From Opitutales bacterium (GTDB lineage Bacteria > Verrucomicrobiota > Verrucomicrobiia > Opitutales > UBA2987), in contig CBDDEL010000011.1 in NCBI GenBank assembly GCA_965226885.1, positions 160,001 through 224,000 of the forward strand: a DNA stretch of 64,000 bases. Reading direction: 5' to 3'. Positions 1,730 through 56,131 of this stretch are shown piece after piece. Every line of letters begins with the position of its first letter. Position 1 is the stretch's first letter. The position numbers were made by a program, and so were the translations under genes. The notes beneath the pieces are model-generated. The model was not told the DNA's origin. It ran no database searches and saw only the letters and a list, made by a program, of their open reading frames with translations.

Positions 1730-2018
1730 GTCTATAAGAAATAGAAAAAAAAATGCCCTTGCAAGCGGGAAGAAACATTCTAGCACGAAAAATGCTATCA
1801 AGTTTTGTAGTTATCGGTAATTAGAGGCTGTCCCAAAAGGGTGATTTTTGCGAGGGCTTTTGATAGGCGCTCATTTTAGAGGTATTTGCATTTGGGAGAG
1901 TATCAACTTTGCTCTCCTATGACGTTAGGATACTGGTTTTGGGGTCCGGTTGCCTGGTTTTCTTTGTATGAGCCGACAGTAAGGCTGTGAAAAAGTATTG
2001 TCCTTGCTTTTCCGCTCT

Positions 2019-3500
2019 CTAGGCCGCCGCTTTGGTTTTTAGTTCGTCTTGCTGGGCCAGCATCTTGGCTACTTTCCATAGGTTGTGCGAGAGTACCGAC
2101 CAGGCTACGCTGATCGAGCGGTTGGCAAAGCCTTTGCTGCGCAACCGCCCGGCCTGCCAGCGATTCTTCAATACCCCGATCCGCCCTTCGGTGCTGGCCC
2201 GGCGCTTTTGCAATTGTCTGAACAGTGGTTCCTCCATCCGTTTTTTCAACTGCTTCGGATCGCGTGGACAGAGCGCGTCGTAGATTCCCTCCTGGGCTAA
2301 CTGCCGGCGGGCCCGCTGGGAGGCAAATCCCCGGTCCGCGCACATGGCCGCTATGGGTTCTTCCAGGTTGAAGCGGTTCTGTCTTTGCAAACTCTCTTGC
2401 ATTTGTTCATTTTCGCTTGGAGTTCGGCTGCCGTAGAGTTTCCAGTCCAGCAGGTACCCTTCAACGCTTTCTCCCAAAAACAGGGTGTTGCCGAACTCGA
2501 CCTCTTGGCCCGCTTTACCTCGCACAATCACCTGCCCATCGAGTTCGTAAACACTCAAGACTTTCTCTGCGTTTTTCACCTGGCGGCCGCCAATGATCCG
2601 CTCGTGCGCCTGTTTGATGACCACCGGGATTTGCTCGCTCATGCGCTCCATCCGGGCGAGGATCTGTTGGACCTGTTTTTCGCTGTAATCGCTTTGCTCC
2701 CAGCAGGCTTGCAATAATTCCCGGTGACTGCGGGCATGCTCCCCGATCCGTTTGAGCAGCTTTTTCATCTGCCTCAAGATACCCTTGCGCTGCCGCGCGC
2801 TGTCCTTTCGCCGCCGGCTGTGGGTCATCTGTATGCACAGCCGATTCATCTGCCGAGCCAAGGGCTCCGGTTCGATCGGCATGCGATGGCGCAAACCGGC
2901 CTTCTCGCGGATCAGCCGGATCGCTTTGAGCAACGTGCCGGCTACATCCTTGAGTAATACCCAGTCCGTCGGCCAATGAATGTTAGCCTCCAAACAGGTG
3001 CCGTCGATCAGGCAAATGGTGGTGTCAATCGGCTTGTCCAATCCCACCTGCCGGGCCAGAAGGGCATCGCCCACCACCTCAGTCAAGGTCCGGTGCAAGG
3101 CCCTCAACTGCTCTTCGCTGAAAAACTTCGAGGCCCGCTCCAGGGTGCTTTTGGAGATGCCCCTGATGCCATCGATCTGCCGGACACGGCAAAAGTCGGC
3201 CAACAGATCGCTGCTGCCCAGAGCCCGCGACAAATGCCGAAACGAAATCCCTCCGAGCAGACGGCCCAGCGTATCCATGCGCAGTGCCTTGATGGCAAAA
3301 CTGGCCCGCTGCCGCCGGGCCTTTAGACCCATTGGCGGCCACCCCTCCAAGGCCAGCTCAATGGCCTGCGATTCCACCTCCGAGTCGATCAGCAGCCGAT
3401 CGATTCGATCAATGGTGGCGCGGAAGTTATCGTAATCGAGGCACCGGTCGACCACAGTTAAAGCTGGACGCAGGAGGCATTGGATGGCTATATTTTTCAT
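2019..3500 (-). CDS. DDE transposase (IS5/ISNCY-like), 493 aa
   Basis: IDGTCLEANIHWPTD, RGKAGQEVEFG, ADRGF and RRASTEGRIG motifs; native ATG at 3500 by comparison with 54044-55525. Confidence 0.9.
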   Translation of the reverse strand: MKNIAIQCLLRPALTVVDRCLDYDNFRATIDRIDRLLIDSEVESQAIELALEGWPPMGLKARRQRASFAIKALRMDTLGRLLGGISFRHLSRALGSSDLLADFCRVRQIDGIRGISKSTLERASKFFSEEQLRALHRTLTEVVGDALLARQVGLDKPIDTTICLIDGTCLEANIHWPTDWVLLKDVAGTLLKAIRLIREKAGLRHRMPIEPEPLARQMNRLCIQMTHSRRRKDSARQRKGILRQMKKLLKRIGEHARSHRELLQACWEQSDYSEKQVQQILARMERMSEQIPVVIKQAHERIIGGRQVKNAEKVLSVYELDGQVIVRGKAGQEVEFGNTLFLGESVEGYLLDWKLYGSRTPSENEQMQESLQRQNRFNLEEPIAAMCADRGFASQRARRQLAQEGIYDALCPRDPKQLKKRMEEPLFRQLQKRRASTEGRIGVLKNRWQAGRLRSKGFANRSISVAWSVLSHNLWKVAKMLAQQDELKTKAAA

Positions 3501-3718
3501 AGAAAGGGCTATAGGCGGATCCTCCAGCAGTTGGTCTTCGAGCCCCTGCCGGAACTCTCCGTCCCAGGCATTTTCTCCGGGCAGGCACTTGATCCGCTCC
3601 ACCAAAAACTCCCCGCCCTGCGCGCGAGATCAAGCATGAGTTCAGGCCCCACCTGACTCTTCATCGCTCCGCGTCGAGTCCGTATGACGTTTCTCGTCTT
3701 CTATATTCGGTGTCACAA

Positions 3719-3988
3719 CTAACTGCGGCGTGATGCTTTAGATAACACAACAGAATTTTCGATGGGTTTCGTTTCCCATGGCCCGTTTCTCGAACTGCCT
3801 TTCGACCCGCTCACTCCTCCTTCGTCGAGCCGCCCCGCCCAATACGAACCGTCCCGGACTGTCGCAAAGATAAACGGCCACCTGGGCCACCTGATGAGCA
3901 CTCGTCCCCTGGCTACCAACAATAGGCCATGAAGGCGATGCTCGTAGGAAGATTGCTCGCTTCGACGGATTTCACCTTGCAAGACCAA
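3719..3988 (-). pseudogene. IS630-like transposase N-terminal HTH remnant
   Basis: VLQGEIRRSEQSSYEHRLHGLLLVARG resembles IS630 orfA N-termini; degenerate, no DDE part. Confidence 0.5.
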
Positions 3989-3989
3989 G

Positions 3990-4238
3990 CTAGGGGCGCG
4001 CCACGGGCAGCCATCCCTGCACCGGCGTGCCCAACCGGATAGCGCCCCGCGTCTTCAGCGATGCGGCTTGCGATACGGTTGGCGGCGGCCTTGAGGGAAC
4101 CGTAGGCGAGGTGGGTGTAGCGGCGGCGGTCTGCACCTTGTTGTGCCGGAGCAGGTTTCCAATCATGGGCAGCGCCTCGCCGACCGGAAACCCGTTTCTG
4201 GCATAGCTATGTCCAAAAGGTCGTAAATGCGCTACCAA
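3990..4238 (-). pseudogene. Tyrosine recombinase C-terminal remnant
   Basis: HSYA...GEALPMIGNLLRHNKVQT resembles the HxxRH...LGH box; frameshifted afterwards. Confidence 0.65.
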
Positions 4239-4326
4239 AGCTCACGAAAAGAGGCGTGCCGCGCTTGAAGTCGGGCATCACCCGGGGGGGTTGCCTTCCT
4301 AAAGTGCGCCGCGGCGCTGAAGCTCT

Positions 4327-6852
4327 TCAAAAACTGTAGCCGAGCTTTCCGTACCAGAAGGCGCCATCAAACCCAAAGGGGCAGAACTGGCCGTATTTGT
4401 TGCCAGTAGTCGCGGCGGACTTCGGATTTTCGTCAGGGTAATTGTTGAAGACGTTCTGAGCGCCCGCCGTTAAGGTGATTCGATCCGTAAGGGAGTAGTT
4501 GACTTCGAAATCAACGAGGAATTCGTCTCCGTAGGTTTGACTATCCTCGGAATCATGCCAGGAACTATAGTAACGGCCGCGGCCCAGCAGATTCCAGCGA
4601 TCCAGCATGGGCTGCGTCAGGGTTATGGTTGCCCGATGCCTGGGAAGACCCTCCTGTAATTCCCGGATGCGGACGTCGTTTATCGTCTCGGGGCTGAACT
4701 GGGTGACTTCCGTATTCGTGTAGTTATAACCGAGGCTCAGTTCACCCTCCCGCACTCCGGTCGACAGAACGACGTCGATGCCGCGGGTTTCCGTGTCAAA
4801 GTCATTGATGAAAAAGACGTACTCCACCAGATTGTAGGCGTCGGTGATGCCCGTAGCGAACAATTGATCGCGCTCTGCATCCGTAAACTCGAAGTCCTGT
4901 GAGAGCGACATGCGGTTCTTCACGTCGATGCCGAAATAATCGACCGTGATTACCGTATTGCCCATATCGACAACGAAGCCGATACTGAAGTTGGTCGATT
5001 TTTCAGGCGTGAGCGCCTCGCCGCCCCTCCCCATCGCAACGGGATTGGTGGGAGGAATCACGGCCCTGGTGATTAGTTCCATTCGGTCCGCTTGAAATTC
5101 AGTGGTTACGTTGAAAGCGTTTTGCTGACCGGGAGTGGGGGCCCGGAAACCGGTGTTGAAGCTCCCGCGCACCTTCAGATTCTCGTTGATGCCGTAGGTG
5201 GTCGCCAGCTTATAGTTGATTGTGCCTCCGAAATCATTGAATTCTTCATAGCGCAAAGCGGCGGCAACCAACCAGTCGTCGGTCAGCTCGTATTCCGCGT
5301 CCACGTAGACGGCATAGTTGGAGCGGTCCCATATACCGGCGGCGCTATCACCGAAACCCGAGAAACCGTTGGAAGCACCCCTGAATCCCTGCTGATGCAG
5401 AGCCTGGCCGATCGCATATGACTCGGGTTGCCCCCTCACGATTTCAAACTCCTCGACACGGTATTCGAAGCCACTGGCGAGGAACAACTGCTCGCTTAGC
5501 GGATAGGTCACGCCAAAGTTGAGGTTGATTTCGGTCTGAATATAATCACCGGGATCGAAATAAGTCGGAGTATCGGGGCCGAGAGAGGCGTTGACGGTAT
5601 TAAAGATAAAGAAATCAGTGTGATGACGCCCGTAAGCAGCGCTGAAATCCAAGCCGAGTTTCGATCCGGTTGTTCTCACCCCGGCGACAATGGATTGGTC
5701 CTTCGCGTACCCGCCAAAGCGGGGCGTGAAACCGCCGGGGAAGAGTTCCTGAAAGGTGAACAGATTGGGATCGTCGAACACCTGTTGCAAAGCGACGGGG
5801 TCCGGCACATGGTTAGTTATCGTTACCACAGGGACCTTGGACTCATCGCCATCCAAAGCGCCCACCAGCAACGTTTTTCCGGCGTCATTACTGAATACGC
5901 CGCGTCGCGTATTGGGATTGCGGTAATAGAACCCGCCCTCCACTTCCTTGCTCGCGTAGTTGGCATGACCGTAGAACTCGAGGTTCCCGCCTATGGCGGC
6001 GCCGTAATTGGCAAACAATTTGAGATCGTCCCGAACGAAGGGTTGACCCCAGATTTGAGCGGGATTCGCCACCTCGCTGTTTCCCACCGCGATCAGAGCA
6101 GCGGCGTCATCTCGCTGCACGGAGCGGATGGTCTCGCCAGAGTTGCCGTACTCCCCGCTGAGATTGATCCAGGCCTTTTCGCTGCCCAAGCCGATATTGC
6201 CGGCGATGGAAACTGCTTCGCCGCCACCGTCCTGGTAAATCCCCGTTCGAACGATGAGAGACCCTCCTTCGTAACTGTCGTTGAGCTCGAAGTTCAACAC
6301 CCCCGCAATGGCATCGGAACCGTACTGCGCCGAAGCTCCGTCGCGCAGCACTTCAATCCGTTTCAGAGCGAGCGCGGGAATGGGGGCTACATCGGGCCCC
6401 TGTGCGCCATCGGCGACGCCGTTGCCCAACCAGTGAATCACGGACGCGCGGTGGCGGCGCTTGCCGTTGATGAGCACCAGCGTATGGTCCGGCGGCAGCC
6501 CGCGTATATTGAGCGGCCGAACGATCGTCGAGGAGTCGCTGATCGGCTGGGTATTGACGTTGTAAGAGGGGATGACGTTCCTCAATAGATCCTGTAAATC
6601 AGTGAAGCCTTGCATGGTGAGGGATTCGCCGGCGAATGTATCGACGGGCACCGCTGAATCAACCACCGAACGCGGCTCCGCCCGCGAACCGATGATGACC
6701 AGTTCTTCGAGGACCTGCAGATTCTCGGAGTCGTCCCGGGGCTCGGACGGGGCTGGGGTCGAGTGAACGCTTTCGGGCTGCAGCACCTCCTGCGCGAAGG
6801 CATTTAAAGGAAGCAATGCAAGTATGGTAAGAGTAATTGTAGAAAGTCTCAT
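4327..6852 (-). CDS. TonB-dependent outer-membrane receptor, 841 aa
   Basis: Signal peptide MRLSTITLTILALLPLNAFA, TonB box EELVIIGSR, plug motifs IRGL/LVLINGKR/RIEVLRDGASAQYGSDAIAGVLNF, C-terminal YSF. Confidence 0.95.
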   Translation of the reverse strand: MRLSTITLTILALLPLNAFAQEVLQPESVHSTPAPSEPRDDSENLQVLEELVIIGSRAEPRSVVDSAVPVDTFAGESLTMQGFTDLQDLLRNVIPSYNVNTQPISDSSTIVRPLNIRGLPPDHTLVLINGKRRHRASVIHWLGNGVADGAQGPDVAPIPALALKRIEVLRDGASAQYGSDAIAGVLNFELNDSYEGGSLIVRTGIYQDGGGEAVSIAGNIGLGSEKAWINLSGEYGNSGETIRSVQRDDAAALIAVGNSEVANPAQIWGQPFVRDDLKLFANYGAAIGGNLEFYGHANYASKEVEGGFYYRNPNTRRGVFSNDAGKTLLVGALDGDESKVPVVTITNHVPDPVALQQVFDDPNLFTFQELFPGGFTPRFGGYAKDQSIVAGVRTTGSKLGLDFSAAYGRHHTDFFIFNTVNASLGPDTPTYFDPGDYIQTEINLNFGVTYPLSEQLFLASGFEYRVEEFEIVRGQPESYAIGQALHQQGFRGASNGFSGFGDSAAGIWDRSNYAVYVDAEYELTDDWLVAAALRYEEFNDFGGTINYKLATTYGINENLKVRGSFNTGFRAPTPGQQNAFNVTTEFQADRMELITRAVIPPTNPVAMGRGGEALTPEKSTNFSIGFVVDMGNTVITVDYFGIDVKNRMSLSQDFEFTDAERDQLFATGITDAYNLVEYVFFINDFDTETRGIDVVLSTGVREGELSLGYNYTNTEVTQFSPETINDVRIRELQEGLPRHRATITLTQPMLDRWNLLGRGRYYSSWHDSEDSQTYGDEFLVDFEVNYSLTDRITLTAGAQNVFNNYPDENPKSAATTGNKYGQFCPFGFDGAFWYGKLGYSF

Positions 6853-6933
6853 TGGTATCTGAATATGACCATTACACCACTCAACCAACTCGAGGTCAAG
6901 TCCGGATTCTACTGCCAGGGTAGAAAGATTCTA

Positions 6934-7277
6934 GGTTCCTCGACGTTTTCAGTGGTACATTGCGGAGGGGATGTTGAGTTTACCGACGGCGAAGTGGAGC
7001 ATGGTGATTAGCTTCTTTAGTGGTGTGATGGCCTCTGGCTTTGCGTTTGGTTGCGCTAAAGACACTGTTGAGTTCTTCAATGCAGGTATTGGTGAAGTGC
7101 GATTCCCAGTGGGCGAGGGTTTCCTCTTGGTGATTTTCGATTATGTTGGCCCATGGGTTTAAGGAAGCCTCGCCATGATGCTTACACATTGCGGTAATAA
7201 CGTTCGAAATAGGTACTCAGGTTGCGTCTTCTCAGTAAAGGATATTGTGCCAGTACCACTGAAAACGTCGAGGAACC
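6934..7277 (-). mobile_element. 344-bp non-autonomous ISL3-derived element (MITE-like)
   Basis: Perfect 25-bp IRs GGTTCCTCGACGTTTTCAGTGGTAC, 8-bp TSD AGATTCTA (6926-6933, 7278-7285), internal ISL3 C-terminal remnant TNTCIEELNSVFSATKRKARG. Confidence 0.85.
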
Positions 7278-7380
7278 AGATTCTAAGACGCAACTAGCTG
7301 ATAAGCAGCTGATAAGCAAAAAGATAAAAAAAGAGCTAGACAATCCCGAATAAATCAGTCATGTTAAGATGGTATGAAAG

Positions 7381-9080
7381 CCGAGATTTCCCATATGAAC
7401 ATTCGTAATCGTTGAAAATAGCTACTTTCTAATATTTCGATCCAATTTTCTGCTTTCAATGTGATTTTGCAATCCTTTCCTTGGTTATTTGATGATCAAA
7501 TCGGCAGTATTTAACAATTATTGCTGATTTTCCCTTTGCTTGGTCAAATCAGGGAAAGATATTTCCTTCTGTTGGAGGTTTCCACAGCACTGATTCCCAC
7601 AGCACTGATTCCTTTTGTATCGAAAAATCTTCTTACTCACCCCGTATCAGGTGCGAGTCGCAGTCGCTCTACTCGCTTGAGCATGGTTCGAAACATTTCT
7701 CTTGGGATGGCCACCTCAGCCATCTGGAAAGTGATATACTTGGCATGGTGGATCACCTTTGCTCCGATTTTGATGAGTTTCTCCCGCAAAGAGCTCAGCA
7801 TCTAGTGCTTCACCTTGCCAGGAAGAATCAACCGGCGCATGAAGTTGCCCAGATTGTAGGCTAAGCCGAAGAGCTGAAGCCGAACGGCATTGTCCTCAAA
7901 GTCATGGCAGGACAAGCGGGTCCAGTGGATGGCATGTTTGCCCTCTTTGATCCACTGCTCTGCGGTGCCCCGGTGGTTGTAAAATTTCACTACCTTCCTG
8001 GGTGGCCAGTTCAGATTTGTCACGATGAAACCGACCCGCGCAAATAACTCTCCGGCCTGCCACTCGACCTTGGCCACCACCCGGCGAGGTCTCTGCCAAC
8101 TAGCGGCTTGATACGGAAAACTGGCATAAAACACCTTGGGTGCCCACGAGGGTCGCCCCACTGGCCGAGTGAGTAAAGGGGCGATATGTTTTTGTAAAAT
8201 CGTGTTGCTCTGCAGCCGAATGGCATAGGAGAAGTTCTCTTGCTCAAGGTAACCGTAGAGGTCCGGATTGGCGAAGGCTGCGTCACCTCGGAAAAATCGT
8301 TTCAGGGGACAGTCACGATAGCGGGCAACGACCGGTTGGAGCACCGACAACCAATCGTCGGCACTGTGCACATTGCCTTTACGCAGGTTGGCCCGTTCCA
8401 GATCACCAAACTGGTTGAAGCAGAACAGGGGATGGTAACAGGTGCAGCCGAAATGACCGTTGAAGGCTGAGCCTTCCTGCTTCCCGTAAGTAGGGCTCTC
8501 CGAACTATCCATATCGAGAATCAATTTTTTCATCCCCACTCGCCTATTCACCTGGTCGATCCATTGACCACTCATGTCCATCAGTGCGCTCAGATTCGCA
8601 GGCTTGGTTAACATCTGTGTTTCAAAGCGGCTCATTTCACTGGGCGAAGCCGCCGGTTGCCAATCGGCACGACCCCCGACAATCTGCCTCATGACCGGAT
8701 CAAAGCGCAGGCGCTCCGCATCGTTCGTATCTTTGTATCCTGCCAGGCGACTAAAGACAGACTGCCGAAGCAGAGCCGTTCTGCCGTGCTGGATATTTTT
8801 GCCCGTGCGCTCCTCCACCACATTTTTGCTTCCTATTGCAGTCAGCCCGAAAGCCTCATCGAGTTCCCGGTAGAGTAACAATCCTGCATCACTGGTAACC
8901 TTCGCACCGTGGAACTCCAACTTGATTCGGCGGTTGAATTGAACCCGAAAACTGCTCTTTTTTGCGTCACCCATTGGATTTTAAGAATTTGCTCGTTATA
9001 AGTATATTTAAGTAACTTATTATTAAACACATAGCGCTTATTTCAAGCTAATTTTCTTATGATGAAATGGGAAATATGGG
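7381..9080 (-). mobile_element. IS1380-family element A (1700 bp)
   Basis: Imperfect IRs CCGAGATTTCCCAT / CCCATATTTCCCAT around an IS1380 transposase; no TSD at the native 7381 end. Confidence 0.85.
7637..8974 (-). pseudogene. IS1380 transposase with one premature TAG (7802-7804)
   Basis: VTSDAGLLL, LDMDSS, RGDAAF and YNHRGTAEQWIKEGK motifs; frame continues past the stop as MLSSLREKLIKIGAKV to TGA at 7637. Confidence 0.85.
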
Positions 9081-9212
9081 CTATATTGATTTTCGCTAAC
9101 TCAATTATAGAACCCTTTTTTGGCCGGATCGAGCAAAAACTTGCTCTTTCCGGCTCTTTTTATCAACGTCATCCAGTTGACTATAAAATCTTTATATTTT
9201 TGGGACAGCCTC

Positions 9213-10039
9213 TAACTAACTTCGTTGCGGTCGCACCAAGAGAGTATCCGGTCTCGACAAAATCCACTGTCGGCGCGCCAAATAATCCGCGTACGGGGCC
9301 AGCTTTGGCGAATCCGTTTAACCAGCAATTTGAGGATGGCCCCGGCATGCTTGCTGGCATCGATCTTGCTCGGCCGCAGGTAGGCCACCAGCAGCTGATC
9401 ACCGCAAAAAACATATAGCGGCAGAAAACAGTAATGATCATAATAACCGTGGAAAAAACGTCCCTCCTGGAGCCCGTGCACCGGATTGTCGGTGGCGTCA
9501 AAGTCCAGGATGATCTCTTCGGGTTCCTCGGCAAAGGAGCCCATGAACTGTTCGACCAACAGCTCGTTTACCGCAAAGGCCGCCCGCCGATCCTGCCCGT
9601 TTTCAAAACGACACAAAGTCGGCGCGCTGGCCAACGTTTCAATGCGCCCCGTTACCGTTGGCAACAATGGATCGTGGCGCAGGGTATCAAAGTCGTTCAA
9701 ATCCTCATAGCCCGCCACCAGCCCGTAAACGCGCTGCCGCAGCATCCCCAATACCTCATGGCGTACTTTGCCCTTCTGCCGTTTGTCCACTAACTGTCGG
9801 GCCGCTCGTTCGGTCAAGCCCAACTGCCGATCCACTTCCCGGATCAAAAGCAGTCCGGCATCCGAAGTAACCTCTCCGCCCTTGAAATCAACCCGCACAC
9901 GGCGGCCTTTTACCCTTGTCAACTGTAGCTTTAATTGTTTACCTTTTGTCATCGCTGATATTGCTTTAATTATTGATCTATCCTGCTGTATATCAGCAGT
10001 TAAGCATATCAACGATACTTTTTTTACGAAATATCCGGG
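9213..10039 (-). mobile_element. IS1380-family element B, 3'-truncated
   Basis: IR CCCGGATATTTC at 10039; transposase stops at WCDRNEVS where the IS5-like end abuts. Confidence 0.9.
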
Positions 10040-10222
10040 CTAACCCGGATGTAAACGCCGGGATGAAACCGGTACGGGGGTCGGGGTAAAACCGGTACGC
10101 TTGGAATAAGGTTTAGGTTAGTAATTGCAGGTACGTCAAGGTTTAGGGTTTGGGAGTTGGTTTTGGGGATTGGCTTGGGGTCGGTGAGGAGGCCGGAGGC
10201 CGACGAGCCGGGCCCAAGGCGT

Positions 10223-10990
10223 TTATTGTTTTGTGCCACGGCGACGGCGTCGAGCATCGCGCAAGCGGTAGCTTTGCCCGTTGGCTTCGAGGATATGCAC
10301 CCGATGGGTGAGTCGGTCCAGCAGAGCTCCGGTGAGCCGTTCGGAACCGAGCACTTCGATCCAGTTCTCAAAGGGCAGGTTGGTGGTGACGATGAGACTG
10401 GTGCGCTCGTAAGCGCGGCTGACCACGTCGAAGAGCAGTTCGGAACCGGTCTTGGAAAAAGGGACGTAACCGAGTTCGTCGAGGATGAGTAGGTCGAGCC
10501 TTTCGAGTTGCTTCATGAAGCGCTGCAGGTCGTGGTTGTCGCGTTGCTCGAGCATATGGGTAACCAGGGCGGTGACCCCGAAGAAACGGATCCGCCGGCC
10601 CTGGGCACAGGCGGCAAAGCCCAGGGCGGTGGCCAGGTGCGTTTTACCGGTACCGGCGTTACCGAGGAGCAGCACGTTTTCGCGCTGGTCGACATACTCC
10701 CCGCGCATGAGCTCTCGGATGAGCGCTTCGTTGAGCGAGGGCTGCGCTTCAAAGGCGAAGCTCTCGAGGGTCTTGAGCACGGGGAAACGGGCGTTTTTGA
10801 TCCGCCGCTGGGCGGCCCGCTGTTCGCGTTCAATGAGCTCCCGTTCGACCAGATGCAACAAAAAGGCGGCGTAATCGAGCCGGTCCCGGGAACAAGCCGC
10901 GGCCACCGCCGGCCATTCGCGCAGGATGGTGGGCAACTTCAGTTTCTTGAGGTGATGGTGTAACAGCAGCTGGTTTTTTTCTTCCTTCAT
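10223..10990 (-). CDS. istB: IS21 helper ATPase
   Basis: GNAGTGKTHLA Walker A, LLILDELGY Walker B, LLDRLTH, GQSYR. Confidence 0.95.
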   Translation of the reverse strand: MKEEKNQLLLHHHLKKLKLPTILREWPAVAAACSRDRLDYAAFLLHLVERELIEREQRAAQRRIKNARFPVLKTLESFAFEAQPSLNEALIRELMRGEYVDQRENVLLLGNAGTGKTHLATALGFAACAQGRRIRFFGVTALVTHMLEQRDNHDLQRFMKQLERLDLLILDELGYVPFSKTGSELLFDVVSRAYERTSLIVTTNLPFENWIEVLGSERLTGALLDRLTHRVHILEANGQSYRLRDARRRRRGTKQ

Positions 10991-12492
10991 AAAGCCCCTC
11001 CTGGAATCTTGAGCAGTTCGCTGTAGGCACCGAGGTCAGGGGCGGCCACACGGACGTGACGCAGGTGTGGATGGCCGTCCAGCCGGAAGGTTCTGCTCCC
11101 GTAGTCTTCCTGAGGATAGAGATACTGGGCGATGGCCTCACGAGTCAGTCCCCCCACCCGCAGGGCCGAGACGACGGCCTGCTGCAAGGCCGCCATGGGG
11201 TGTTTCTCCAACAGCCGCAGCACCCGGATATACTCCCGGGTGCCTTCGCCCCCGCATTGGCTTTCGAGCCGGCGTCTGAGGACCTGCAGGCACTGCGGCA
11301 ACTGCCAGCCCGAGAGTGGGCGGGCGAAGTCCAAAGCGCCCGGTTTTTTCTCCAGCAAAGCCAGGTAGTGCACCGGCTCGAAAGAGACTTGCTCTTTATC
11401 CCAAATGCGGCGGTGCCGGGCCACCTCTTGGCCCCCACAGAAGATCACCACCTGCCGACAGGACCCTTCCACCACCACCGGATGGTGGGCGCAGCGCACC
11501 GGCACCGAATAGTCGTTGCACTCGAAGCGCACCAGCGAGAGGCTGCTGACGCAGGTCGAGCGTTTGCGGCTCGCTTCAAAGGGTATGGGCGGCAACGCCA
11601 GCATGACGGCGCGCTCCTCGGCCAGCAGTTCCTTTTTCACCGCCCTTTTCCCGCGTAATTTACGCTCCATGTCCCGCTCACATGCCTCCAACAGCTTTGC
11701 GTTGAGTTCCTCCAGGTCCCGAACCTGCGGTACCGGTACCAGGAAGTTGGCCCGGGCATAACGCACGATCCCCTCGACCACGCCCTTCTCGTTGGGCCGG
11801 GCGGGCAGACAGAAGTGTTCCTCGAACAGGTAATGGCTCTGTAGCTGCAGAAACCCGTCGGTCAGCTTGCGTTCACGCGAACCGATAATCTTACCCACCG
11901 CCACCTTCGAGTTGTCATAGCTGATGCGCCGGGGCACCGCCCCGAAAAACTCAAAAGCTCGCAGGTGCCCCTCCCAGAAGCTCTCCGTGCACTCCCGTTC
12001 GAACACCTGCACGAAAAAGGCATCGCTGTAGGGCAGGCTCATGGCAAAAAATGGCCGCCTACGCAATTGCCCCGCCTCCTTCACCAGGGCATGACCGAAG
12101 TCCACCTGTCCCTCCCCGGGGCGGTGCTCCAGCGGCACGAACACTTCCCGCCGCCTCGCTCGCAGCTCGGCCACCACCTCCTTGACCGCCGTGTAGCCCC
12201 CTTGGTAGCCCTTCTCCCGACCCAAACGCTGGTAGATCCGTTTGGCCGTATGGCGCTGCTTCTTGGGCACGTTCCGGTCCGCTTTGAGCACCTCCTCGAT
12301 CCAGCCCACATACGGATCGATCTTGCGCTCTCGCCTCTTCTTGCGCCGGTCTCCCGGCGGCTGGGAATAGGCCAGCATCTTTCCCAGGGTCTCCCAGTGC
12401 AGTCCCTCTTCTCGCATTACAGAGCGCTTGCTCTGCTTGTCCCGCAGCACTTTGTGCCGCACTCTTGTCCATTGCTTCATATCTCGATACAC
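10987..12492 (-). CDS. istA: IS21 transposase
   Basis: KKQRHTAKRI, GQVDFG, YDN, NEKGVVE; 4-bp overlap with istB. Confidence 0.95.
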   Translation of the reverse strand: MYRDMKQWTRVRHKVLRDKQSKRSVMREEGLHWETLGKMLAYSQPPGDRRKKRRERKIDPYVGWIEEVLKADRNVPKKQRHTAKRIYQRLGREKGYQGGYTAVKEVVAELRARRREVFVPLEHRPGEGQVDFGHALVKEAGQLRRRPFFAMSLPYSDAFFVQVFERECTESFWEGHLRAFEFFGAVPRRISYDNSKVAVGKIIGSRERKLTDGFLQLQSHYLFEEHFCLPARPNEKGVVEGIVRYARANFLVPVPQVRDLEELNAKLLEACERDMERKLRGKRAVKKELLAEERAVMLALPPIPFEASRKRSTCVSSLSLVRFECNDYSVPVRCAHHPVVVEGSCRQVVIFCGGQEVARHRRIWDKEQVSFEPVHYLALLEKKPGALDFARPLSGWQLPQCLQVLRRRLESQCGGEGTREYIRVLRLLEKHPMAALQQAVVSALRVGGLTREAIAQYLYPQEDYGSRTFRLDGHPHLRHVRVAAPDLGAYSELLKIPGGAL

Positions 12493-12566
12493 TCCTCCTT
12501 TCTAGGATAAGCGTACCGGTTTTAAAGCGCCCTCTTTACCGTACCGGTTTTTCCCCGGCGTTTACA

Positions 12567-12638
12567 TATGAAAAAGGCCAAATCGTTGCTCAAGATTATA
12601 ATGAGACCATCAAGTGGTATAAACTGGCTGCAGAAGTG
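12567..12638 (+). pseudogene. Sel1-like repeat gene fragment (72 bp) between two ISs
   Basis: YEKGQIVAQDYNETIKWYKLAAEV fits the Sel1 consensus YxxGxGVxxDxxxAxxWYxxAA. Confidence 0.75.
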
Positions 12639-13028
12639 GGTAGTGTTAACATTTTGAATGTTTAAGCTGTACTTTTTAGCGTGATTATGTTGTGAACTGG
12701 GAATGGTCCATATCACAGTAAAATGTCCTCAATGCGGAAGCGATCACATCATCAAGCACGGCAAGGATCCGAAAGGGGTTCAGAAGTATCGATGCAAGGG
12801 GTGTGGTTATCAGTTTCGGCTTCACCCCAAAAGTCGTGAGCATCCTCCGGCGCTGGTCAAGCAGGTGCTCCGTGCGCACCAAAACCGGATGAGCCTGCGT
12901 GCCATTTACCGTACCTTCGGGGTAGCCCCAAAGACGGTCATCGAATGGATTAAAAAAAAAGTCCTGAGTTTGCCGAAGCTGGAGTCCACTCTGCTTGCCC
13001 GCCAGTGTAGTGATGTGCTGGAACTGGA
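12639..13028 (+). mobile_element. IS1-family element A, truncated by IS1-B
   Basis: IR GGTAGTGTTAACAT; matches 63206-64000 up to GAACTGGA; InsA zinc ribbon CPQC...CKGC. Confidence 0.9.
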
Positions 13029-13834
13029 GGGAGTGTATAAAAAAAGAATGTTATTTTGTATTTTTAGCTGTACAAATAGCGTTAGGCAGTTTATTCTTAG
13101 TGCATGGTTACTAAAATTATTAATTGTCGGCACTGTGGAAGTGAAAATATCATTAAATTTGGCAAGACGCCCAACCATAAACAGCGCTACCGCTGCCATG
13201 ATTGTGGTAAACAAAGCCGCGAAAACCCCACAGTGAAATACACCGAAGAGCAAAAAGAAATGATCCTTCGAGTCTATCAGGAACGCAGCAGTCTACGCGG
13301 TTTACAGCGCGCCTTCGGGGTGAGTCCCAACACCGTTTTGAGTTGGTTAAAAAAAACGACAATCGCTGCGACCGCTCAAAAGCACGATTCTTGCGGCCCG
13401 CCGCCATGATGTCATTGAACTGGACGAACTGTGGTCTTTTGTGGGGCGCAAGAGCGATGCCCAATGGGTTTGGATCGCTCTTTGCCGACGCACCCGTCAA
13501 ATCCTCTCCTATGCCATTGGGCCTCGGGATTGGTATCGTTGCCGGGAACTTTACGAGCGTCTGCCACGGGCCTACAAAAGATGTGCCACCTACAGCGACT
13601 TTTGGAGCACTTATGATGAAGTGATGAAGTCTTTCCTCATAACCGATCCGTGGGAAAAGAAACCGGTGAAACGGCCCATGTGGAACGATGGAACAATACC
13701 CTGCGCCAACGACTGGGTCGTTTCACACGCAAAACCCTCTCCTTTTCCAAGCTTAAGAGTATGCATGAAACCTGTCTGAGACTTTTCATCAATATAATCA
13801 AGAATTAGCCACCATTCCTACTTAATACACTACC
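13029..13834 (+). mobile_element. IS1-family element B, degenerate copy
   Basis: Matches 31250-32051; variant left IR GGGAGTGTAT; 8-bp duplication frameshifts insB; no TSD. Confidence 0.9.
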
Positions 13835-14093
13835 GGAATACGCAGGTGTCGCCGGTGTCGGGATCATACTGCACCATACGGTTATTGGGGATGTCGGAAA
13901 TAACGACCAGGTTCTGGCGCGGCAGGTATACGGGCCCCTCCATCCACTCACCGCCGCGTCAATGGTGGACAAGTTGGGGGTTTTCCGGCAATAGCCGGTC
14001 AAACCTGGGGTCGTAAGACTCAAAGCCTTCTCTGAGCTCTTCAGAAGATTTTTGGCTTCTGTGGGTGGGAAAAATTTTGGATTCAGCCGTCAT
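13835..14093 (-). pseudogene. SMP-30/gluconolactonase-family 5' remnant
   Basis: Hand translation EGFESYDPRFDRLLPENPQLVHH*RGGEWMEGPVYLPRQNLVVISDIPNNRMVQYD; internal stop, cut by IS1-B. Confidence 0.8.
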
Positions 14094-14130
14094 TATTTAT
14101 TTAGTTTTGTAAATCTAAATTAATTAAAGG

Positions 14131-15282
14131 TCAATTGTGTATCCATTTGGATGGCGAAAAAGCTTCGAGTCTGAAATTTGTTGAGCCTTTGGTGGCGAAG
14201 TCAGCCAGAATTTCCCCGATGACGGGGCAGAATTTGTAGCCGTGGCCGGAGAAGCCGACGCCCAGCACCAAATTCTCATACGCGGGATGTGGACCGAGGA
14301 TGAAATCGCCTTGGGGGCTTTGGGTGTAGGGGCATGTGACTGAATACAGACAGGGCCCCGTTAAGGCGGGGATGGTTTCGGCCAGGCAACTGCGCATCTG
14401 TTCGATATCGTCCTCCGTTACTTCCCGTTGGATGGTATCCGGGTCGCAGGGTGTGCCTTTGTTGTGGATGGCTATCTTGATCCCGTTTTCCACCTCGCCG
14501 TCGTAGGGGAATCCGTAAAACTCGGTGCCATCTTCCACTTTCCAGATGTGAACGGGGAAATGTTCGGGCAGGAATGGTTCAATGCCGCATTTGGGCTGGA
14601 ACCAATGCAGGACCCGTCGTTCGATGCTCAGGGGCAAGCGCAGTTCGGGAAAAAGTTTGGCCGCCCACGGGCCCGCCGTGACGATCAGTTTTCCGGCGGA
14701 GTAACGGCCTTTGTCGGTAATGACTTCGATGCCGCCGCCGTTGGGATTTTTTATCCATTTCAGGAACGATTCATCGGTTCCGATTTGAGCGCCGTGTGCG
14801 ATTGCATTTTCGAGGTGGGCCCGGATGGCTTTTTCGGGGTGAACGAATCCTCCTTTTTTCTCGAAAAGACCGGTGTAGTTGTCGTTGGGATTGAAAACTG
14901 GAAAACGTTGCCGGATCTCGCTGGCGGTTAAAATTTCGTGGTCAATACCGTGAGTTTCAGCGCTGAGGCGGCTGCCTTGAATGATTTTTCCATCCGTTTT
15001 ACCGACCATCAGGCAGCCGGTCTGTTTTAACAATATTTGGCCGGATTGGCGGGAAAGTTTTTCCCAGAGTTCGTAGGACCTGAAAAGGAGCGGAACATAC
15101 TCGGGCCCCTCGAAATAGGCCTGCCGGATAATTCGCGATTGTCCGTGGCTTGATCCCTGGGTGTGGGGCGGGCTGAGGCGGTCGAAACCAAATACCTTTA
15201 CCCCTCGTTCAGCCAGGTGGCTGAGGGCGGCGCTGCCCATGCCTCCCAGGCCGCAGACGATGATATCATATGTTTTGGGCAT
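14131..15282 (-). CDS. solA: N-methyl-L-tryptophan oxidase / monomeric sarcosine oxidase
   Basis: GLGGMG FAD motif, HTQGSSHGQSRIIRQAY, CPYT, GFSGHGYKF. Confidence 0.88.
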   Translation of the reverse strand: MPKTYDIIVCGLGGMGSAALSHLAERGVKVFGFDRLSPPHTQGSSHGQSRIIRQAYFEGPEYVPLLFRSYELWEKLSRQSGQILLKQTGCLMVGKTDGKIIQGSRLSAETHGIDHEILTASEIRQRFPVFNPNDNYTGLFEKKGGFVHPEKAIRAHLENAIAHGAQIGTDESFLKWIKNPNGGGIEVITDKGRYSAGKLIVTAGPWAAKLFPELRLPLSIERRVLHWFQPKCGIEPFLPEHFPVHIWKVEDGTEFYGFPYDGEVENGIKIAIHNKGTPCDPDTIQREVTEDDIEQMRSCLAETIPALTGPCLYSVTCPYTQSPQGDFILGPHPAYENLVLGVGFSGHGYKFCPVIGEILADFATKGSTNFRLEAFSPSKWIHN

Positions 15283-15301
15283 GGCAAGGTGTCAGGTTGA
15301 A

Positions 15302-15329
15302 GGATGTCGCTTCGCTCGGTACAGGTGTC
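15302..15329 (+). repeat. Intergenic dispersed repeat (27/28 identical to 57827-57854)
   Basis: GGATG(T/G)CGCTTCGCTCGGTACAGGTGTC at both sites. Confidence 0.8.
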
Positions 15330-15353
15330 AGGGTTTGGAATACTTTCCCTTTT

Positions 15354-15857
15354 CTATATCACTTTTATTTCCTGATTGGCGAGGTTGGTTAGGGTTTTTC
15401 CGGTTAGTTGGTTGACGATCCATTCTTTTTTTAGCTTTGCTCCGAGGTTGACGTAGAAGTCGATGGCTGGCTGGTTCCAGTCCAGTACGGCCCATTCGAA
15501 ACGGCCACAGTCGTTATCGCGGGCATGTTTGGCCAGGTAAATGAGGAGGGCTTTGCCGATGCCTTTGCCGCGGTAGGCGGGCTTGACGAAGAGGTCTTCC
15601 AGATAAATGCCGGGGCGGCCCAGAAAAGTGGAAAAATTATAAAAAAAGAGAGCGAATCCAGCCGGCGCTCCCTTGTAATAAGCGAGGAGAGCTTTGGCCA
15701 CCGGGTTTTCTCCGAAAAGGTTTTTTCGCAAAATATCCTCCGTCACGACGACCTCATGGAGCAGTTTTTCATACTCCGCCAAATCTTTGATAAAAGAAAG
15801 AATGAGGGGGACATCTTCAATCGCAGCCTGTTTGATGTTAAAATCCGGAGTGGTCAT
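15354..15857 (-). CDS. GNAT N-acetyltransferase (diamine acetyltransferase-like)
   Basis: LAEYEK, YLEDLFVKPAYRGKGIG, WAVLDWNQPAIDFY. Confidence 0.9.
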   Translation of the reverse strand: MTTPDFNIKQAAIEDVPLILSFIKDLAEYEKLLHEVVVTEDILRKNLFGENPVAKALLAYYKGAPAGFALFFYNFSTFLGRPGIYLEDLFVKPAYRGKGIGKALLIYLAKHARDNDCGRFEWAVLDWNQPAIDFYVNLGAKLKKEWIVNQLTGKTLTNLANQEIKVI

Positions 15858-16121
15858 TGAAATGGTAAAGGATCATTCCCAGTCGCTTGGGACGAGGGAA
15901 GTTTATGGAATGATGAATACCCTTGAATCTCAAAACAATCTAATAATTATTTTGAATATTAATCCGTTTTGAGGTTCCTTGAAGTCAAAAATCACGTATT
16001 GATCCCATTATCCTCTCCCGAGTGTATTTGCATTGTTATGTTTTGTTAACTTCTACTATGATAGTATCTTTCTGAATATTTGTTTATCAGGCTTGCTATA
16101 TCCAGGTCATGAGTATCGATA

Positions 16122-18745
16122 TGATGTGACCGCCAAAAACACGACCATTGCCAGTGAGAGTCTTTCTGTGAAAATTACCGGAAAGACCTATAAAACAAAA
16201 AAGATACACACCTGAACAGATCATAACGATACTGCGCGAAGTAGACGCGGGCAAAGGCATCCAGGATGTCTGTCGGTTCCACAATATTAGTCCTCAAAGC
16301 TACCATCGTTGGCGTAAAAAGTATGGCCGCATGGAGTTGCGTGACGCCAAGCGGCTGAAGGAGCTGGAGCGCGAGAACACGCAGCTTAAGAAGATAGTAG
16401 CCGAGCAGATGCTGGAGAACCGTGTGCTCAAGGAGGTGAACGCAAAAAAATGGTAGGCCCGAAGCAGAAAAAGGAAGCGGTGAAGCATGTATTGGCCCAA
16501 GGGTCGTGCTCGCTGCGTCGGGCCTGTCAGTATTTTGGGTTGCACCGCTCAACCTATCTGTATGAACCCAAGAAAGCTATTGAGTACTGAGTATAGGCAT
16601 AAACTGGTGGCACGGATCATTGCCTTTTCGAAGAAGCATCCTCGCTATGGCTATCGTCGAATCCGCGCTTTATTGGCCCATGAAGGATGGCCCGTGAGTC
16701 GCAAATTCGTCCAAAAGGTGCGTCGTGTCGAAGGACTGGGTGTGCGCCCGCCACGCAAGCGCCGCCGTAGGCAGGGTCAATCTACGGCTTCCCCGACACG
16801 GGCTGTAAGGCCCAATCATGTATGGAGCTGGGACTTCGTGGTCGATCGCACTGACCGGGGTGGCCCGCTCAGGCTCATGACATTGATCGATGAGCATACC
16901 CGTCAATGCCTGGCCATTAAGGCAGCTCGGTCACTGAAAAGTGCCGACGTGGTGGAGGTCTTGAACGAAGCCATAAAGGACAACGGCAAACCCCAATGCA
17001 TCCGCTCGGACAACGGATCGGAGTTTATAGCCCACCAAGTCAGAGGAGAACTGCAGCGCCAGAAGATCGACATCGTATACATTGATCCTGGAAGCCCTTG
17101 GCAAAATGGACATATAGAGTCCTTTCACAATCGCCTGCGCGATGAATGCCTCAACCAGGAACTGTTCCTAAGTGACGTGTACTGGATTTGTTGGACACGG
17201 GATTCTCTTATATTCATTGTTTATTGATTAGTGTGTCAGGCGGCTTGTTTTGGTAAAGGGTTTTGTTTTCTCGTTGCCCCCCATGGGGGGCAAATATTTT
17301 CCTCGAATTGGACTGGGCTTTGGTAACTCAGAGAGGAATGTTTGCGATATCGGTTGTAGAAGATTTCCACGTATTCGAAGACAGTTGATCGCAGTTCGCG
17401 CTCGTCGGCAAAGTGGCGGCCTCGAATCGTGCTGGTCTTGAAGCGGCCGTAGAACGATTCCATGGCCGCGTTGTCGTAGCAGTTGCCTTGGGCGCTCATG
17501 CTCGGCTTCATGCCTAGTTCAGAGACCAGCCTCTGATAGTCGTCGCTGGCGTAGGGGCTGCCCCGATCGCTGTGATGAATAATCCCGGTGCGCAGTGTGC
17601 CGCGGGTCATGGCCGCGGCTTTGAGGGCCTTGCCAACCAGCTTCGCGTCGTTGTGGTTGGAAACGCTCCAGCCCAGCAGGCGTCGGCTGAACAGGTCCAT
17701 CACCGTGGCCAAGTACATCCAACCGGCCAGGGTCCGTAGGTAGGTCGTGTCCGCCACCCAGACCTCGTCGATATGGGTCGGCTGGCCATGCTTTTTAAGC
17801 ACATTGGGGCTGTAACCATAGGGATGGTTACTGTTGGTTTTTAATGGCTTAAAGCGTTTACTCTGGGTGCTTTTGATTCCCATTTCACGCATCAGACGCA
17901 GAGCCCGGTCACGGCCGCAATCGATGCCCTCATCATCCTTCAGATGGCGGTGCATTGGCCGATGCCCATAGCGGCCCTTGGCCTCTTTGTGTACCTTCAG
18001 GATCGCCCCCTTGATTCCCTCGTCCTCGATCCGCCGGGCCGAGGGCGCTCGGTGCCTCCAGCAGTAATAGCCACTGCGACAAATCCCCATCGCCGAGCAT
18101 ATTTCCTCGATCTTGAAGCGCCCCTCGTTGTCTTTGACAAACTGGTACTTCATTGTTCGTCCTTGGCAAAGTAGCCCACCGTTTTTTTTAGTATCTGGTT
18201 GATCCGCTCCGAGCGGCGCAGCTCTTTGCGAAGACGATCTATCTCGGCCGCCATCTCCTTCGGACTGCTCTGTCGCTTTGAGGTGGCTTCGCCCTGCTGA
18301 TCGTCCAGATAGAGCCTCTTCCACCTATACAATTGGTTGGTGTTGACCCCAAGTTTGGTCGATACCTCGGTGGCGCTCAGACCATCGAGTATCATCAGTT
18401 GAACTGCCTCATTTTTGAACTCTATACTAAAGCGTCTTCTTCCCATGCTTCGATTCTCCATTTAGGAGAATCTCGTGTCCACTTTTTCCAGTGCACATCA
18501 TAAGCGTGACCGAAGCGCGTGTGGTGATCGAACAATGGCGACACAAATACAACGCCGGACATCCCCACAGCCGATTAGGCTTTCTCTCCCCCAATACATT
18601 CGCCAGACTCTGGCGAACAATCAACAAAGCAGCGGCTGGCTCCATTCGGCCTACGGCCTCACTCCGCCACCCCCTGCAAAACCTACAATACCAAACCTAC
18701 GGAAATACTCTCACTTAAAGTGGTAGCAAAGATGGGGTCCGATCA
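16122..18745 (+). mobile_element. IS3-family element A copy 1, degenerate, with nested IS3-B
   Basis: Ends TGATGTGACC/GTCCGATCA; orfA ATG changed to ATA; 7-bp insertion in orfB; no TSD. Confidence 0.9.
17173..18500 (-). mobile_element. IS3-family element B copy 1 (orfA 18150-18461, orfB 17236-18153)
   Basis: IRs TGACGTGTACTGGA / TGATGTGCACTGGA, TSD TAAG; WVADTTY, HSDRGS and DNAAMESF motifs. Confidence 0.95.
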
Positions 18746-18901
18746 ATCTCGCCGAGTTGAATACCATTCGGTGAGGATTCTCTCTTGAGATGGTCGTAAT
18801 GGTCCCGTCTCACTACGTCTATCCAATAAATCGTATATTTCGACTGGATCGACTTTTTTAGGAATATCTTGTTTCTTTAATCGTTTCTTAAAATCAACCA
18901 T
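18746..18901 (-). pseudogene. 5' remnant (52 codons) of a DEAD/DEAH-type SF2 helicase gene
   Basis: RBS AGGAG then MVDFKKRLKKQDIPKKVDPVEIYDLLDRRSETGPLRPSQERILTEWYSTRRD; LRPSQ is Q-motif-like; cut by IS3-A. Confidence 0.7.
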
Positions 18902-18914
18902 CAATTAACTCCTA

Positions 18915-20199
18915 TGATGTGACCGCCGAAAACACTACCATTGCCAGTGAGAGTCTTTCTGGAGAAATTACCGGAAAGACCTATGAAGCAAAAAAGATAC
19001 ACCCCTGAACAAATCATAACGATACTGCGCGAAGTAGACGCAGGCAAAGGCATTCAGGATGTCTGTCGGTCCCACAATATCAGTCCTCAAAGCTACCATC
19101 GTTGGCGTAAAAAGTATGGCCGCATGGAGCTGCGTGGCGCCAAGCGGCTGAAGGAGCTGGAGCGCGAAAACACGCAGCTTAAGAAGATAGTAGCCGAGCA
19201 GATGCTGGAGAACCGTGTGCTCAAGGAGGTGAACGCAAAAAAATGGTAGGCCCGAAGCAGAAAAAGGAAGCGGTGAAGCATGTATTGGCCCAAGGGTCGT
19301 GCTCGCTGCGTCGGGCCTGTCAGTATTTTGGGTTGCACCGCTCAACCTACCTGTATGAACCCAAGAAAGCTACTGAGTATAGGCATAAACTGGTGGCACG
19401 CATCATTGCCTTTTCGAAGAAGCATCCGCGCTATGGCTATCGTCGGATCCGCGCTTTGTTGGCCCATGAAGGTTGGCCCGTGAGTCGCAAATTCGTCCAA
19501 AAAGTGCGTCGTTTCGAAGGACTGGGTGTGCGCCCGTCTGGCAAGCGCCGTCGCCGGCAGGGCCAATCCACGGCTACCCCGACCCGAGCAGTGCAGCCCA
19601 ACCATGTGTGGAGTTGGGACTTCGTGGCGGATCGCACCGACCGGGGCGGTCCGCTCAGGCTCTTGACACTGATCGATGAACATACCCGTCAATGCCTGGC
19701 CATTAAGGTTGCGCGCTCACTGAAAAGTGCCGATGTGGTAGAGGTATTGAACGATGCCATAAGAGAGAACGGCAAACCTCAGTGCATCCGCTCGGACAAC
19801 GGATCGGAGTTTATAGCCCACCAAGTCAAAGAAGAACTGCAGCGACAGGAAATTGCCATCGCATACATTGATCCAGGAAGCCCTTGGCAGAATGGACATA
19901 TAGAATCCTTTCATAATCGTTTGCGCGATGAATGCCTTAACCAGGAACTGTTCCTGAGCGTGACCGAAGCGCGTGTGGTGGTCGAACAATGGCGACACAA
20001 ATACAACGCGAAACACCCCCACAGCCGATTAGGCTTTCTCTCCCCAAATACATTTGCCAGACTCTGGCGAACAATCAACAAAGCAGCGGCTGGCTCCATT
20101 CGGCCTACGGCCTCATTGCGCCACCCGCTGCAAAACCTACAATACCAAACCTACGGAAATACTCTCACTTAAAGTGGTAGCAAAGATGGGGTCCGATCA
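18915..20199 (+). mobile_element. IS3-family element A copy 2, intact (orfA 18983-19249, orfB 19243-20172)
   Basis: TSD CCTA (18911-18914, 20200-20203); WSWDF, RSDNGSEF and PWQNGHIESF motifs. Confidence 0.95.
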
Positions 20200-20506
20200 C
20201 CTAGTGGAAATGAATCAATTTACAATAACAAAACTATATTTAGGCGGCAATTACACCTCGATTATAAGGTATATTATTTTTACGACCGATATTTTCAATA
20301 ATAATTGTGATAATTTGACGAAGAACTGGACCGCAATGTGATTCCTGGAATAGAGCAAATGAGGATTTGTGAGGGGATATTTTTTGGTGTGGCTTGGGGT
20401 CCAGGGGTTTTACCCCTGGCTGGCGAATGTTGCCCTTTTAGGGCGCTGGATACAGGATGCGGGCTGGGGGATTTTTAAACCCGAATGGACGCTGATTTGG
20501 TTGGTG

Positions 20507-33038: not shown

Positions 33039-33083
33039 AATTTATACCCTCTAGCGGCCTCGGATTCTTAAAAAAATGACTAA

Positions 33084-53754: not shown

Positions 53755-53831
53755 TTTTAGTTAGGTTTTATGTAAATATTCAATTAAATTTTTGAGATGA
53801 AAACTCAAGCCTTTTTCATATCTACTATCTA

Positions 53832-55665: not shown

Positions 55666-56131
55666 TATCTATGCATGCTTCATATTAAGCTGTAATGCAA
55701 ACGGTACTGATTTTTCAACATCTGATGGGTTAAAAATTTCCTGCTATTATTCCATTGCAAGGGGAACTAACTATAGTGAATTAGACAGATTTTTATTTGG
55801 AGAATACGGTTATAATGAATATCTTTTTAAAGCATATCTTGAAAATATCAGTGAAAAGCCTATTACCGTTCTCACGCCCTATTACCGTTCTCACGCGTAT
55901 GTACAAATCAGATCCTTTAGCAGATCGTATGATTTTAGATTATTTTTGGTTTATCCCAGAAACTGATGATGGGCGTAAAATTAAGCCACCATTATCATTG
56001 TTGGGACCTGTTACTTTAAGGAGCGGTGAGTTAACAGGGCTTAAGACTACTACAATAAAAGTTAGATCCGATATGAAATTATCTGAAAATTTTGTTGTTA
56101 TTTATAAAGTCCCAGAAATTTACAAGGAGTA

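Follow-up and report, generated by a model that had tools for sequence, protein, structure and literature searches.

The capture of neighbouring DNA by insertion sequences (ISs) of the IS1380 type has mostly been studied as an engine of the spread of CTX-M and CMY beta-lactamases. According to a published account, the transposase of this family binds a downstream sequence in place of the right inverted repeat (IRR) and takes with it the DNA that adjoins the element's 3' end (PMC9330008). Units formed by ISEcp1 are described as flanked by the AT-rich 5-bp repeats TATAA and TATTA (PMC9429958). Capture of DNA other than resistance genes by this family has already been published: the transposable modules (TMos) of ISPme1 in Paracoccus mobilise variable-length DNA beside the 3' end in environmental bacteria, with no connection to resistance (PMC9330008). 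The present analysis concerns a 64,000-nucleotide stretch (the window) of contig CBDDEL010000011.1 from an Opitutales bacterium (assembly GCA_965226885.1), in which an IS1380-family element, here termed IS1380-A, and an adjacent gene for a TonB-dependent receptor interrupt another IS, the host IS. The arrangement is best read as the product of one-ended transposition of the ISEcp1 type. A TMo driven by IS1247a and joined to an ISAs1-family IS has reportedly been described as well.

The locus resembles the ISEcp1 units that carry blaCTX-M and blaCMY-2 in possessing an IS1380-family transposase, cargo located downstream beyond IRR, and outer ends formed by the left inverted repeat (IRL) and a surrogate. 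The likeness extends to AT-rich 5-bp repeats (CTATA here), inverted repeats that start with CC, and an outward promoter-like site near IRR, present here as a consensus match, whose -35 box TTGAAA is also given for ISEcp1 (PMC9330008). Unlike in those units, the cargo is a TonB-dependent receptor accompanied by IS and gene scraps instead of a resistance gene, and about 530 bp of IS debris separate IRR from the cargo gene. Further differences are that the host bacterium is environmental and uncultured, that the unit entered another IS, and that every copy of the unit has a broken transposase. The ISPme1 TMos likewise represent mobilisation of 3'-adjacent non-resistance DNA by an IS1380-family element; those were captured experimentally in trap plasmids, whereas the present module is deduced from sequence, belongs to a different phylum (Verrucomicrobiota), and is nested two elements deep. 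Carriage of adjacent DNA by a single element also recalls rolling-circle capture by IS91/ISCR, but the latter involves a tyrosine transposase akin to plasmid replication proteins and no direct repeats (PMC9330008), in contrast to the DDE enzyme and target duplication found here. A composite transposon would similarly combine IS and passenger genes; however, the segment holds a single IS1380-A copy, and its far end is unique DNA inside a gene.

The octamer GGGCTATA occurs at 3506-3513 and again at 9078-9085, around a 5567-bp insert (3514-9080) whose boundaries are exact to the base and which has CTATA on either side; 3867 bp of it (3514-7380) are cargo. The intact host IS in the same window (about 53826-55667) contains the octamer only once. 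Throughout the genome the uninterrupted target site was recovered as 111 exact 60-mers with a single octamer, including one in the window at 55509, compared with three left and four right junctions. The CTATA motif begins nine bases upstream of position 3500, where the 493-aa open reading frame (ORF) of the host transposase has its first ATG. An initial annotation, made from the letters of the window, had placed a CTATA-flanked insert of this length in an IS5-like element, split 9 bp upstream of its transposase ATG, and had noted that a shared GGG makes an 8-bp repeat conceivable. The genome-wide counts bear out the insert, the nine bases being the distance to the start of CTATA, and GGG does precede CTATA at both junctions. 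Most simply, GGG at 9078-9080 is the terminus of the IS and the duplication is CTATA; the A at 3513 is assignable to either side, so that CTAT could be the duplicated sequence.

The right end of the insert coincides with the IRL terminus of IS1380-A at 9080, as originally proposed, and this terminus is fixed by 12 further IRL matches that lie outside the composite in 11 different flanks. Among all IRL-side matches of the genome, 15 of 16 finish in GGG. At 7381 the 51 IRR-side matches of the genome share their start, the IRR (CCGAGATTTCCCAT), which has 18 of 25 positions in common with IRL. GAAAG precedes the IRR, and CTATA follows IRL; the internal IRR therefore has no duplication of its own, again as the annotation had stated. 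Family membership of the transposase is clear from NF033539 (334.9 bits, cut-off 180) and PF13701 (E 4e-115). The gene is read from 8974 to 7637 on the minus strand, and the cargo (7380-3514) extends beyond its 3' (IRR) end on that strand.

The opposite boundary falls within a gene for a pyridoxal phosphate (PLP)-dependent decarboxylase, which is cut near codon 82 and of which only a 5' fragment is left. Matches to this fragment at 73-79% nucleotide identity, all from exactly 3514, occur in G045, G209, and G194, three genomes that share the order but come from another family. The homologue in G209 is a PF00282 protein (E 1.6e-31), and in tblastn comparisons all three homologues read on past the PP at which the fragment is cut (...PPEDGQPAAEV...). 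Because position 3514 lies inside the decarboxylase reading frame, it is not the end of another element, and the alternative that a separate element terminates there fails.

A state free of IS1380-A is preserved in G032, a genome of the same order and another family, which carries the sequence of window positions 3981-7380 at 96% identity without IS1380-A at the IRR position. At that point ...GATGGTATGAAAG runs directly into ACAAAAAATC... and on into an intact 453-aa transposase gene of the ISAs1 family (NF033564, 110.6 bits, cut-off 70). ISAs1-like ISs with the same sequence across the IRR point are present in at least eight copies in G006 and at least eight in G008, the latter from the same family as the genome of the window (G000). 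From this continuity in all three genomes it follows that IS1380-A inserted in an ISAs1-like IS by the receptor gene, about 100-120 bp inside that IS. Beyond IRL, the window has CTATA and the host IS instead of the ISAs1-like remainder, and blastn with the G032 locus found no such remainder in the genome. Its absence beyond IRL indicates that IS1380-A and its IRR-side flank moved together, leaving the IRL-side flank behind. The cargo thus has a truncated gene at both of its ends. Away from the IS5-like flank, the cargo segment was recovered in part, as the 3981-7380 portion in G032; within the genome itself, 3514-7380 occurs only in four composite copies.

A far end inside a gene, a duplication in a known target, cargo that is unique in the genome, and the nature of the IRR flank together form the signature of IS1380-family capture. 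The geometry, the duplication, the gene-internal far end, and the G032 comparison all support the proposal that an IS1380 element mobilised about 3.9 kb, and one-ended capture of this cargo by IS1380-A, with a jump into the host IS in the ISEcp1 manner, is accordingly regarded as likely. IS1380-A would have inserted at the above position in the ISAs1-like IS, 64 bp upstream of the receptor gene, in an earlier genome or locus. In a later event its transposase would have used the true IRL (9080) and, in place of IRR, an unrelated sequence 3.9 kb beyond it (3514, in the decarboxylase gene), and the 5567-bp stretch would have moved as one unit into the high-copy host IS, with a 5-bp (possibly 4-bp) CTATA duplication. 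A TGG-to-TAG change would have arisen in the transposase of the unit, and the unit would then have reached four copies by travelling with the host IS inside a second IS1380-family element (IS1380-B), aided by recombination between IS copies. Both the cutting by the IS1380-A transposase itself and this order of events are what we infer from the structure. The coordinates of all components are collected in Table 1.

Table 1. Components of the IS1380-A unit and of the elements that surround it (positions in the window).
Feature	Position	Strand	Details
Host IS, left part	1822..3513	-	inverted repeat TAGAGGCTGTCCC; 493-aa transposase ORF 2019-3500
Duplication CTATA, left copy	3509..3513		8-bp repeat if the preceding GGG is counted
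PLP-dependent decarboxylase 5' fragment, far end of unit	3514..3700	-	about 50 codons, one frameshift, cut at ...EDPP
IS630-family scrap with internal deletion	3701..3989	-	two pieces match a 1144-bp IS of G008, one from its terminus
Spacer shared with G032 from 3981	3990..4326		place of the 'integrase scrap' of the initial annotation
TonB-dependent receptor gene, intact, 841 aa	4327..6852	-	PF07715 8.3e-19, PF00593 6.7e-35
ISAs1-like IS, first ~18 bp, cut off by MITE	6916..6933	+	comparison with G006 and G008 copies
MITE (miniature inverted-repeat transposable element) from ISL3-family IS, 344 bp	6934..7277		25-bp terminal inverted repeats; 8-bp duplication AGATTCTA at 6926-6933 and 7278-7285
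ISAs1-like IS left end, continued	7278..7380	+	to transposase codon 3 (ATGAAAG), where IS1380-A is inserted
IS1380-A, 1700 bp	7381..9080	-	IRR 7381, IRL 9080; transposase 7637-8974
Duplication CTATA, right copy	9081..9085		sequence reading
Host IS, right part	9086..9214	-	about 150 matches for 9078-9214
IS1380-B right (IRL) half, outer element holding host IS	9215..10039	-	nested structure

Several observations weigh against this reconstruction. The shared GGG permits the 8-bp version of the repeat, and the far end bears no convincing likeness to an inverted repeat: it agrees with IRR at 6 of 14 positions, as 11.8% of random 14-mers do, and at 8 of 25, a level reached by 27% of random sites at 25 nt. 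The count of six in the initial annotation was therefore right, but the argument from a weak inverted repeat is at chance level. A clean duplication was seen at none of six independent IRR/IRL pairs in the genome, and the three full IS1380-A copies of G032 have shuffled or recombined flanks. The duplication length of IS1380-A consequently rests on one 4-bp case in G004, where TTAA stands at either outer side of a full copy and its additional 84-bp IRL-terminal piece. Comparison with other copies, proposed earlier as a check, has thus defined the ends of the element, but for the length it has yielded this single usable case. The transposase gene is interrupted by an in-frame TAG (7802-7804) in four of four unit copies, at a codon that reads TGG in 14 and TTG in one of the 15 other copies, and no intact IS1380-A transposase gene was seen in the genome. 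Finally, a donor locus was sought without success in 41 relatives and 401 genomes of the order, and metagenome_contigs had no match to exact 30-mers from the far end or from the cargo/IRR junction.

Other searches around IS1380-A gave comparable negatives: there were no paralogous empty sites in the genome for the 12 IRL flanks, no common empty site in eight family genomes for the flanks of the copy at C10:401810-405891, and no IS1380-A beside the receptor at the three loci compared (L073, L040, and L074) of 80 from a receptor scan of genome_contigs. With no intact gene seen in the genome, the unit can probably no longer move by itself. Readable forms of the transposase gene do exist: G032 has three intact 445-aa genes, contigs of public runs X1-X3 carry C at 7803, giving TGG, and the copy at C10:401810-405891 is a near-identical IS1380-A with TGG, now interrupted.

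The presence of this last copy bears on the question of which enzyme acted. Catalysis of the one-ended event in trans, by the IS1380-B transposase on the IRL of IS1380-A, would be in keeping with the abundance of IS1380-B (210 full copies), with the resemblance of its inverted repeat (CCCGGATATTTC...) to the IS1380-A IRL (CCCATATTTCCC...), and with the finding of its right half in additional tandem units, a hint that surrogate ends are used. The two transposases, however, are only 32% identical, over 241 aa; IS1380-B makes 4-bp YTAR duplications, a pattern to which neither CTAT nor CTATA conforms; and the near-identical TGG copy implies that the cognate enzyme was available. Trans catalysis is therefore considered improbable. 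A different history would have IS1380-A entering the host IS alone, with the CTATA duplication, and the 3.9-kb cargo being placed later, exactly between the left CTATA and IRR, through illegitimate recombination or the action of another element. Duplications are rare at independent IS1380-A copies, a sign that end rearrangements are common, and the genome is saturated with ISs, but this scheme demands a second event of single-base precision for a cargo that has no ends of its own and a truncated gene at each end. In addition, the interrupted ISAs1-like IS at IRR is the trace expected of a primary IS1380-A insertion elsewhere, and the left half of the host IS is not restored by homologous exchange between IS1380-A copies. 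Such a two-step origin is judged very improbable.

The junctions might also be an artefact of assembly in a repeat-dense genome. Hundreds of near-identical IS copies are present, the copy on C16 ends at the contig end inside the receptor gene (4724), and among the pieces listed from contigs of four public runs none spans 3513/3514 or 9080/9086; the pieces of runs X1-X3 that break off at 3513 are uninterrupted host IS. Against this, the three copies of the left junction and four of the right lie on different contigs whose outer flanks differ, and the copies have private differences: two share an 11-bp duplication, one has a 30-bp duplication, and one contains an extra IS. The order of the cargo is independently confirmed by G032, and an artefact has only a minute probability. 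Capture and joint movement by IS1380-A hence remains the preferred explanation.

The four copies of the unit are that of the window and those at C10:127654-135051 (99.95% identical), C9:15109-22215, and C16:951194-944443. They share their junctions and the stop codon, which points to descent from one insertion, and all assembled left junctions (three of three) represent one and the same event. The 11-bp tandem duplication (GCTGATAAGCA, 7296-7306) is present in the window and C10 copies and absent from C9, C16, and G032; the 30-bp tandem duplication, covering 7787-7816, is found in the C9 copy alone (C9:19930-19989). In a public contig of 892 letters (run X1), 219 letters match 3514-3732 without difference, starting exactly at the far end, and the remaining 673 have no match within 3000-9600. 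This contig may represent the left junction that the assembly lacks for the C16 copy, or else a second target.

The multiplication of the unit is tied to the outer element. IS1380-B is about 1572 bp long and is present in stretches of the window at 9215-10039, 33081-33909, and 47813-49448; its full copies in the genome are about 99.5% identical and flanked by their 4-bp duplications. The IS1380-B copy that holds the host IS also carries IS21. Without the unit, this composite of IS1380-B, IS21, and host IS is found at C12:82950-88874 and C14:234712-240636; these two align over 5933 bp at 99.97% identity, have unrelated flanks, and show CTAG on both sides of each, which indicates that the nested block moves as a whole. 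On C9 the unit-bearing composite extends over 9575-22211, with TTAG at either side. One IS1380-B site is divided between the window copy, which keeps its right outer flank, and the C10 copy, which keeps its left one; the rest of the copy pattern is explained by recombination between IS copies. That the host IS moved the composite with its own ends was considered and rejected, as no matching host-IS duplications flank the window or C10 copy and their outer flanks come from that one IS1380-B site.

The second IS1380 type also shows possible traces of surrogate-end use. The 831-bp IRL half of IS1380-B is also found as an additional tandem unit immediately after a full copy; of 270 right halves, 15 have an IS1380-B right end before them. 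The stretch 47813-49448 consists of a full IS1380-B, CTAA, a right half, and CTAA, which looks like the pairing of IRL with an internal surrogate end. Taken with the 84-bp piece in G004, such tandem IRL-terminal pieces suggest that transposases of this group may pair IRL with surrogate ends. A wider, tentative picture can be drawn, although it is judged less likely than not: the receptor gene would sit in a three-layer 'Russian doll' (IS1380-B around IS21 and host IS, around the IS1380-A unit), whose outer layer still transposes as a block. This assembly would have moved a nutrient-uptake gene between families (G000 and G032) and raised its copies to four, and IRL/surrogate pairing would be routine for both IS1380 types in this lineage.

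The host IS is about 1825 bp long when intact and forms 116 paired copies of about 1.8 kb in the genome. Its 493-aa DDE transposase matches PF01609 (E 1.1e-5), and its best family models are ISNCY and IS5, with both scores (NF033593, 206.8 bits; NF033578, 117.8 bits) below cut-off. Recurrent insertion hot spots lie within this IS, as many alignments break at 2955-2961 and 3323-3330. The genome as a whole is extremely rich in ISs, with the two IS1380 types, at least 116 paired host-IS copies, and dozens of IS21 copies.

One of the IS630 scraps mentioned in the initial annotation was recovered at 3701-3989, and its 1144-bp relative in G008 carries HTH_32/33 and DDE_3 domains; the further scraps were not borne out. 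The supposed integrase scrap found no support: the segment 3990-4326 has no Pfam match at E 0.1, is not among the 12 PF00589 matches of the genome, and gave neither a tblastn match with 10 integrases nor a PHROGs integrase match. The MITE has a 69-aa ORF with PF01610 similarity (E 1.5e-6) and is inverted at the same site in G032 (L039 13276-13619; 99.7% identity), with identical copies in G006. Depths in the thousands over the MITE indicate that it is a very abundant element in the samples of the public runs.

The receptor itself is an uninterrupted 841-aa ORF with plug and beta-barrel domains, similar in length to its orthologues in G032, G008, and a metagenome-assembled genome (MAG). All NCBIfam subfamilies scored below cut-off, so that no substrate subfamily was assigned. 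Its protein is 95% identical to the G032 copy. In a FastTree phylogeny of 82 rows with SH-like support, the window receptor pairs with that of G032 (support 99), and their sister group comprises G008 and the MAG, labelled Opitutales. This four-member clade (support 100) lies among MAG sequences labelled Latescibacterota, Poribacteria, and Gemmatimonadota. In G008 and the MAG only the receptor gene itself (4322-6873) is conserved, and the contexts differ. That the receptor is closer to a copy from another family than to one from its own, together with the shared flanking scraps, argues for a probable horizontal transfer of the segment. A region of about 3 kb with two outer-membrane beta-barrel genes (G032 L039 5381-8393 and C14:435228-438212) is likewise shared at 97-98.6% identity, another instance in which the two lineages, of different families, have recently exchanged DNA.

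The genome has 19 PF00593 matches, four of which are the unit copies, and eight TonB_C matches, which means that the partner machinery is present. A promoter-like consensus match (TTGAAA-17-AATATT, 7459-7431, minus strand) faces out of the IRR end towards the receptor, in a region with seven such sites against 4.2 expected, and the receptor might be expressed from this putative IS-borne promoter. RNA run X15 covers the receptor gene in part, with 2-10 differences per piece and divergence at 4322 and 7277/7282; given these differences and breakpoints, the pieces probably stem from a relative's copy in another context and say nothing on transcription of the unit.

The case leaves the known mechanism of IS1380-family capture unchanged; it is the cargo and the host that are unusual. 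A mechanism of the ISEcp1 type would here move an ordinary physiological gene, a TonB-dependent uptake receptor, in an uncultured environmental bacterium. The forensic evidence is unusually complete: the empty target is known from 111 copies, a sister arrangement without the IS survives in a second family, and the cargo has a truncated gene at each end. Almost the same receptor protein is shared by two bacterial families, and its repeated occurrence within one genome illustrates that the nesting of ISs can multiply a cargo gene.

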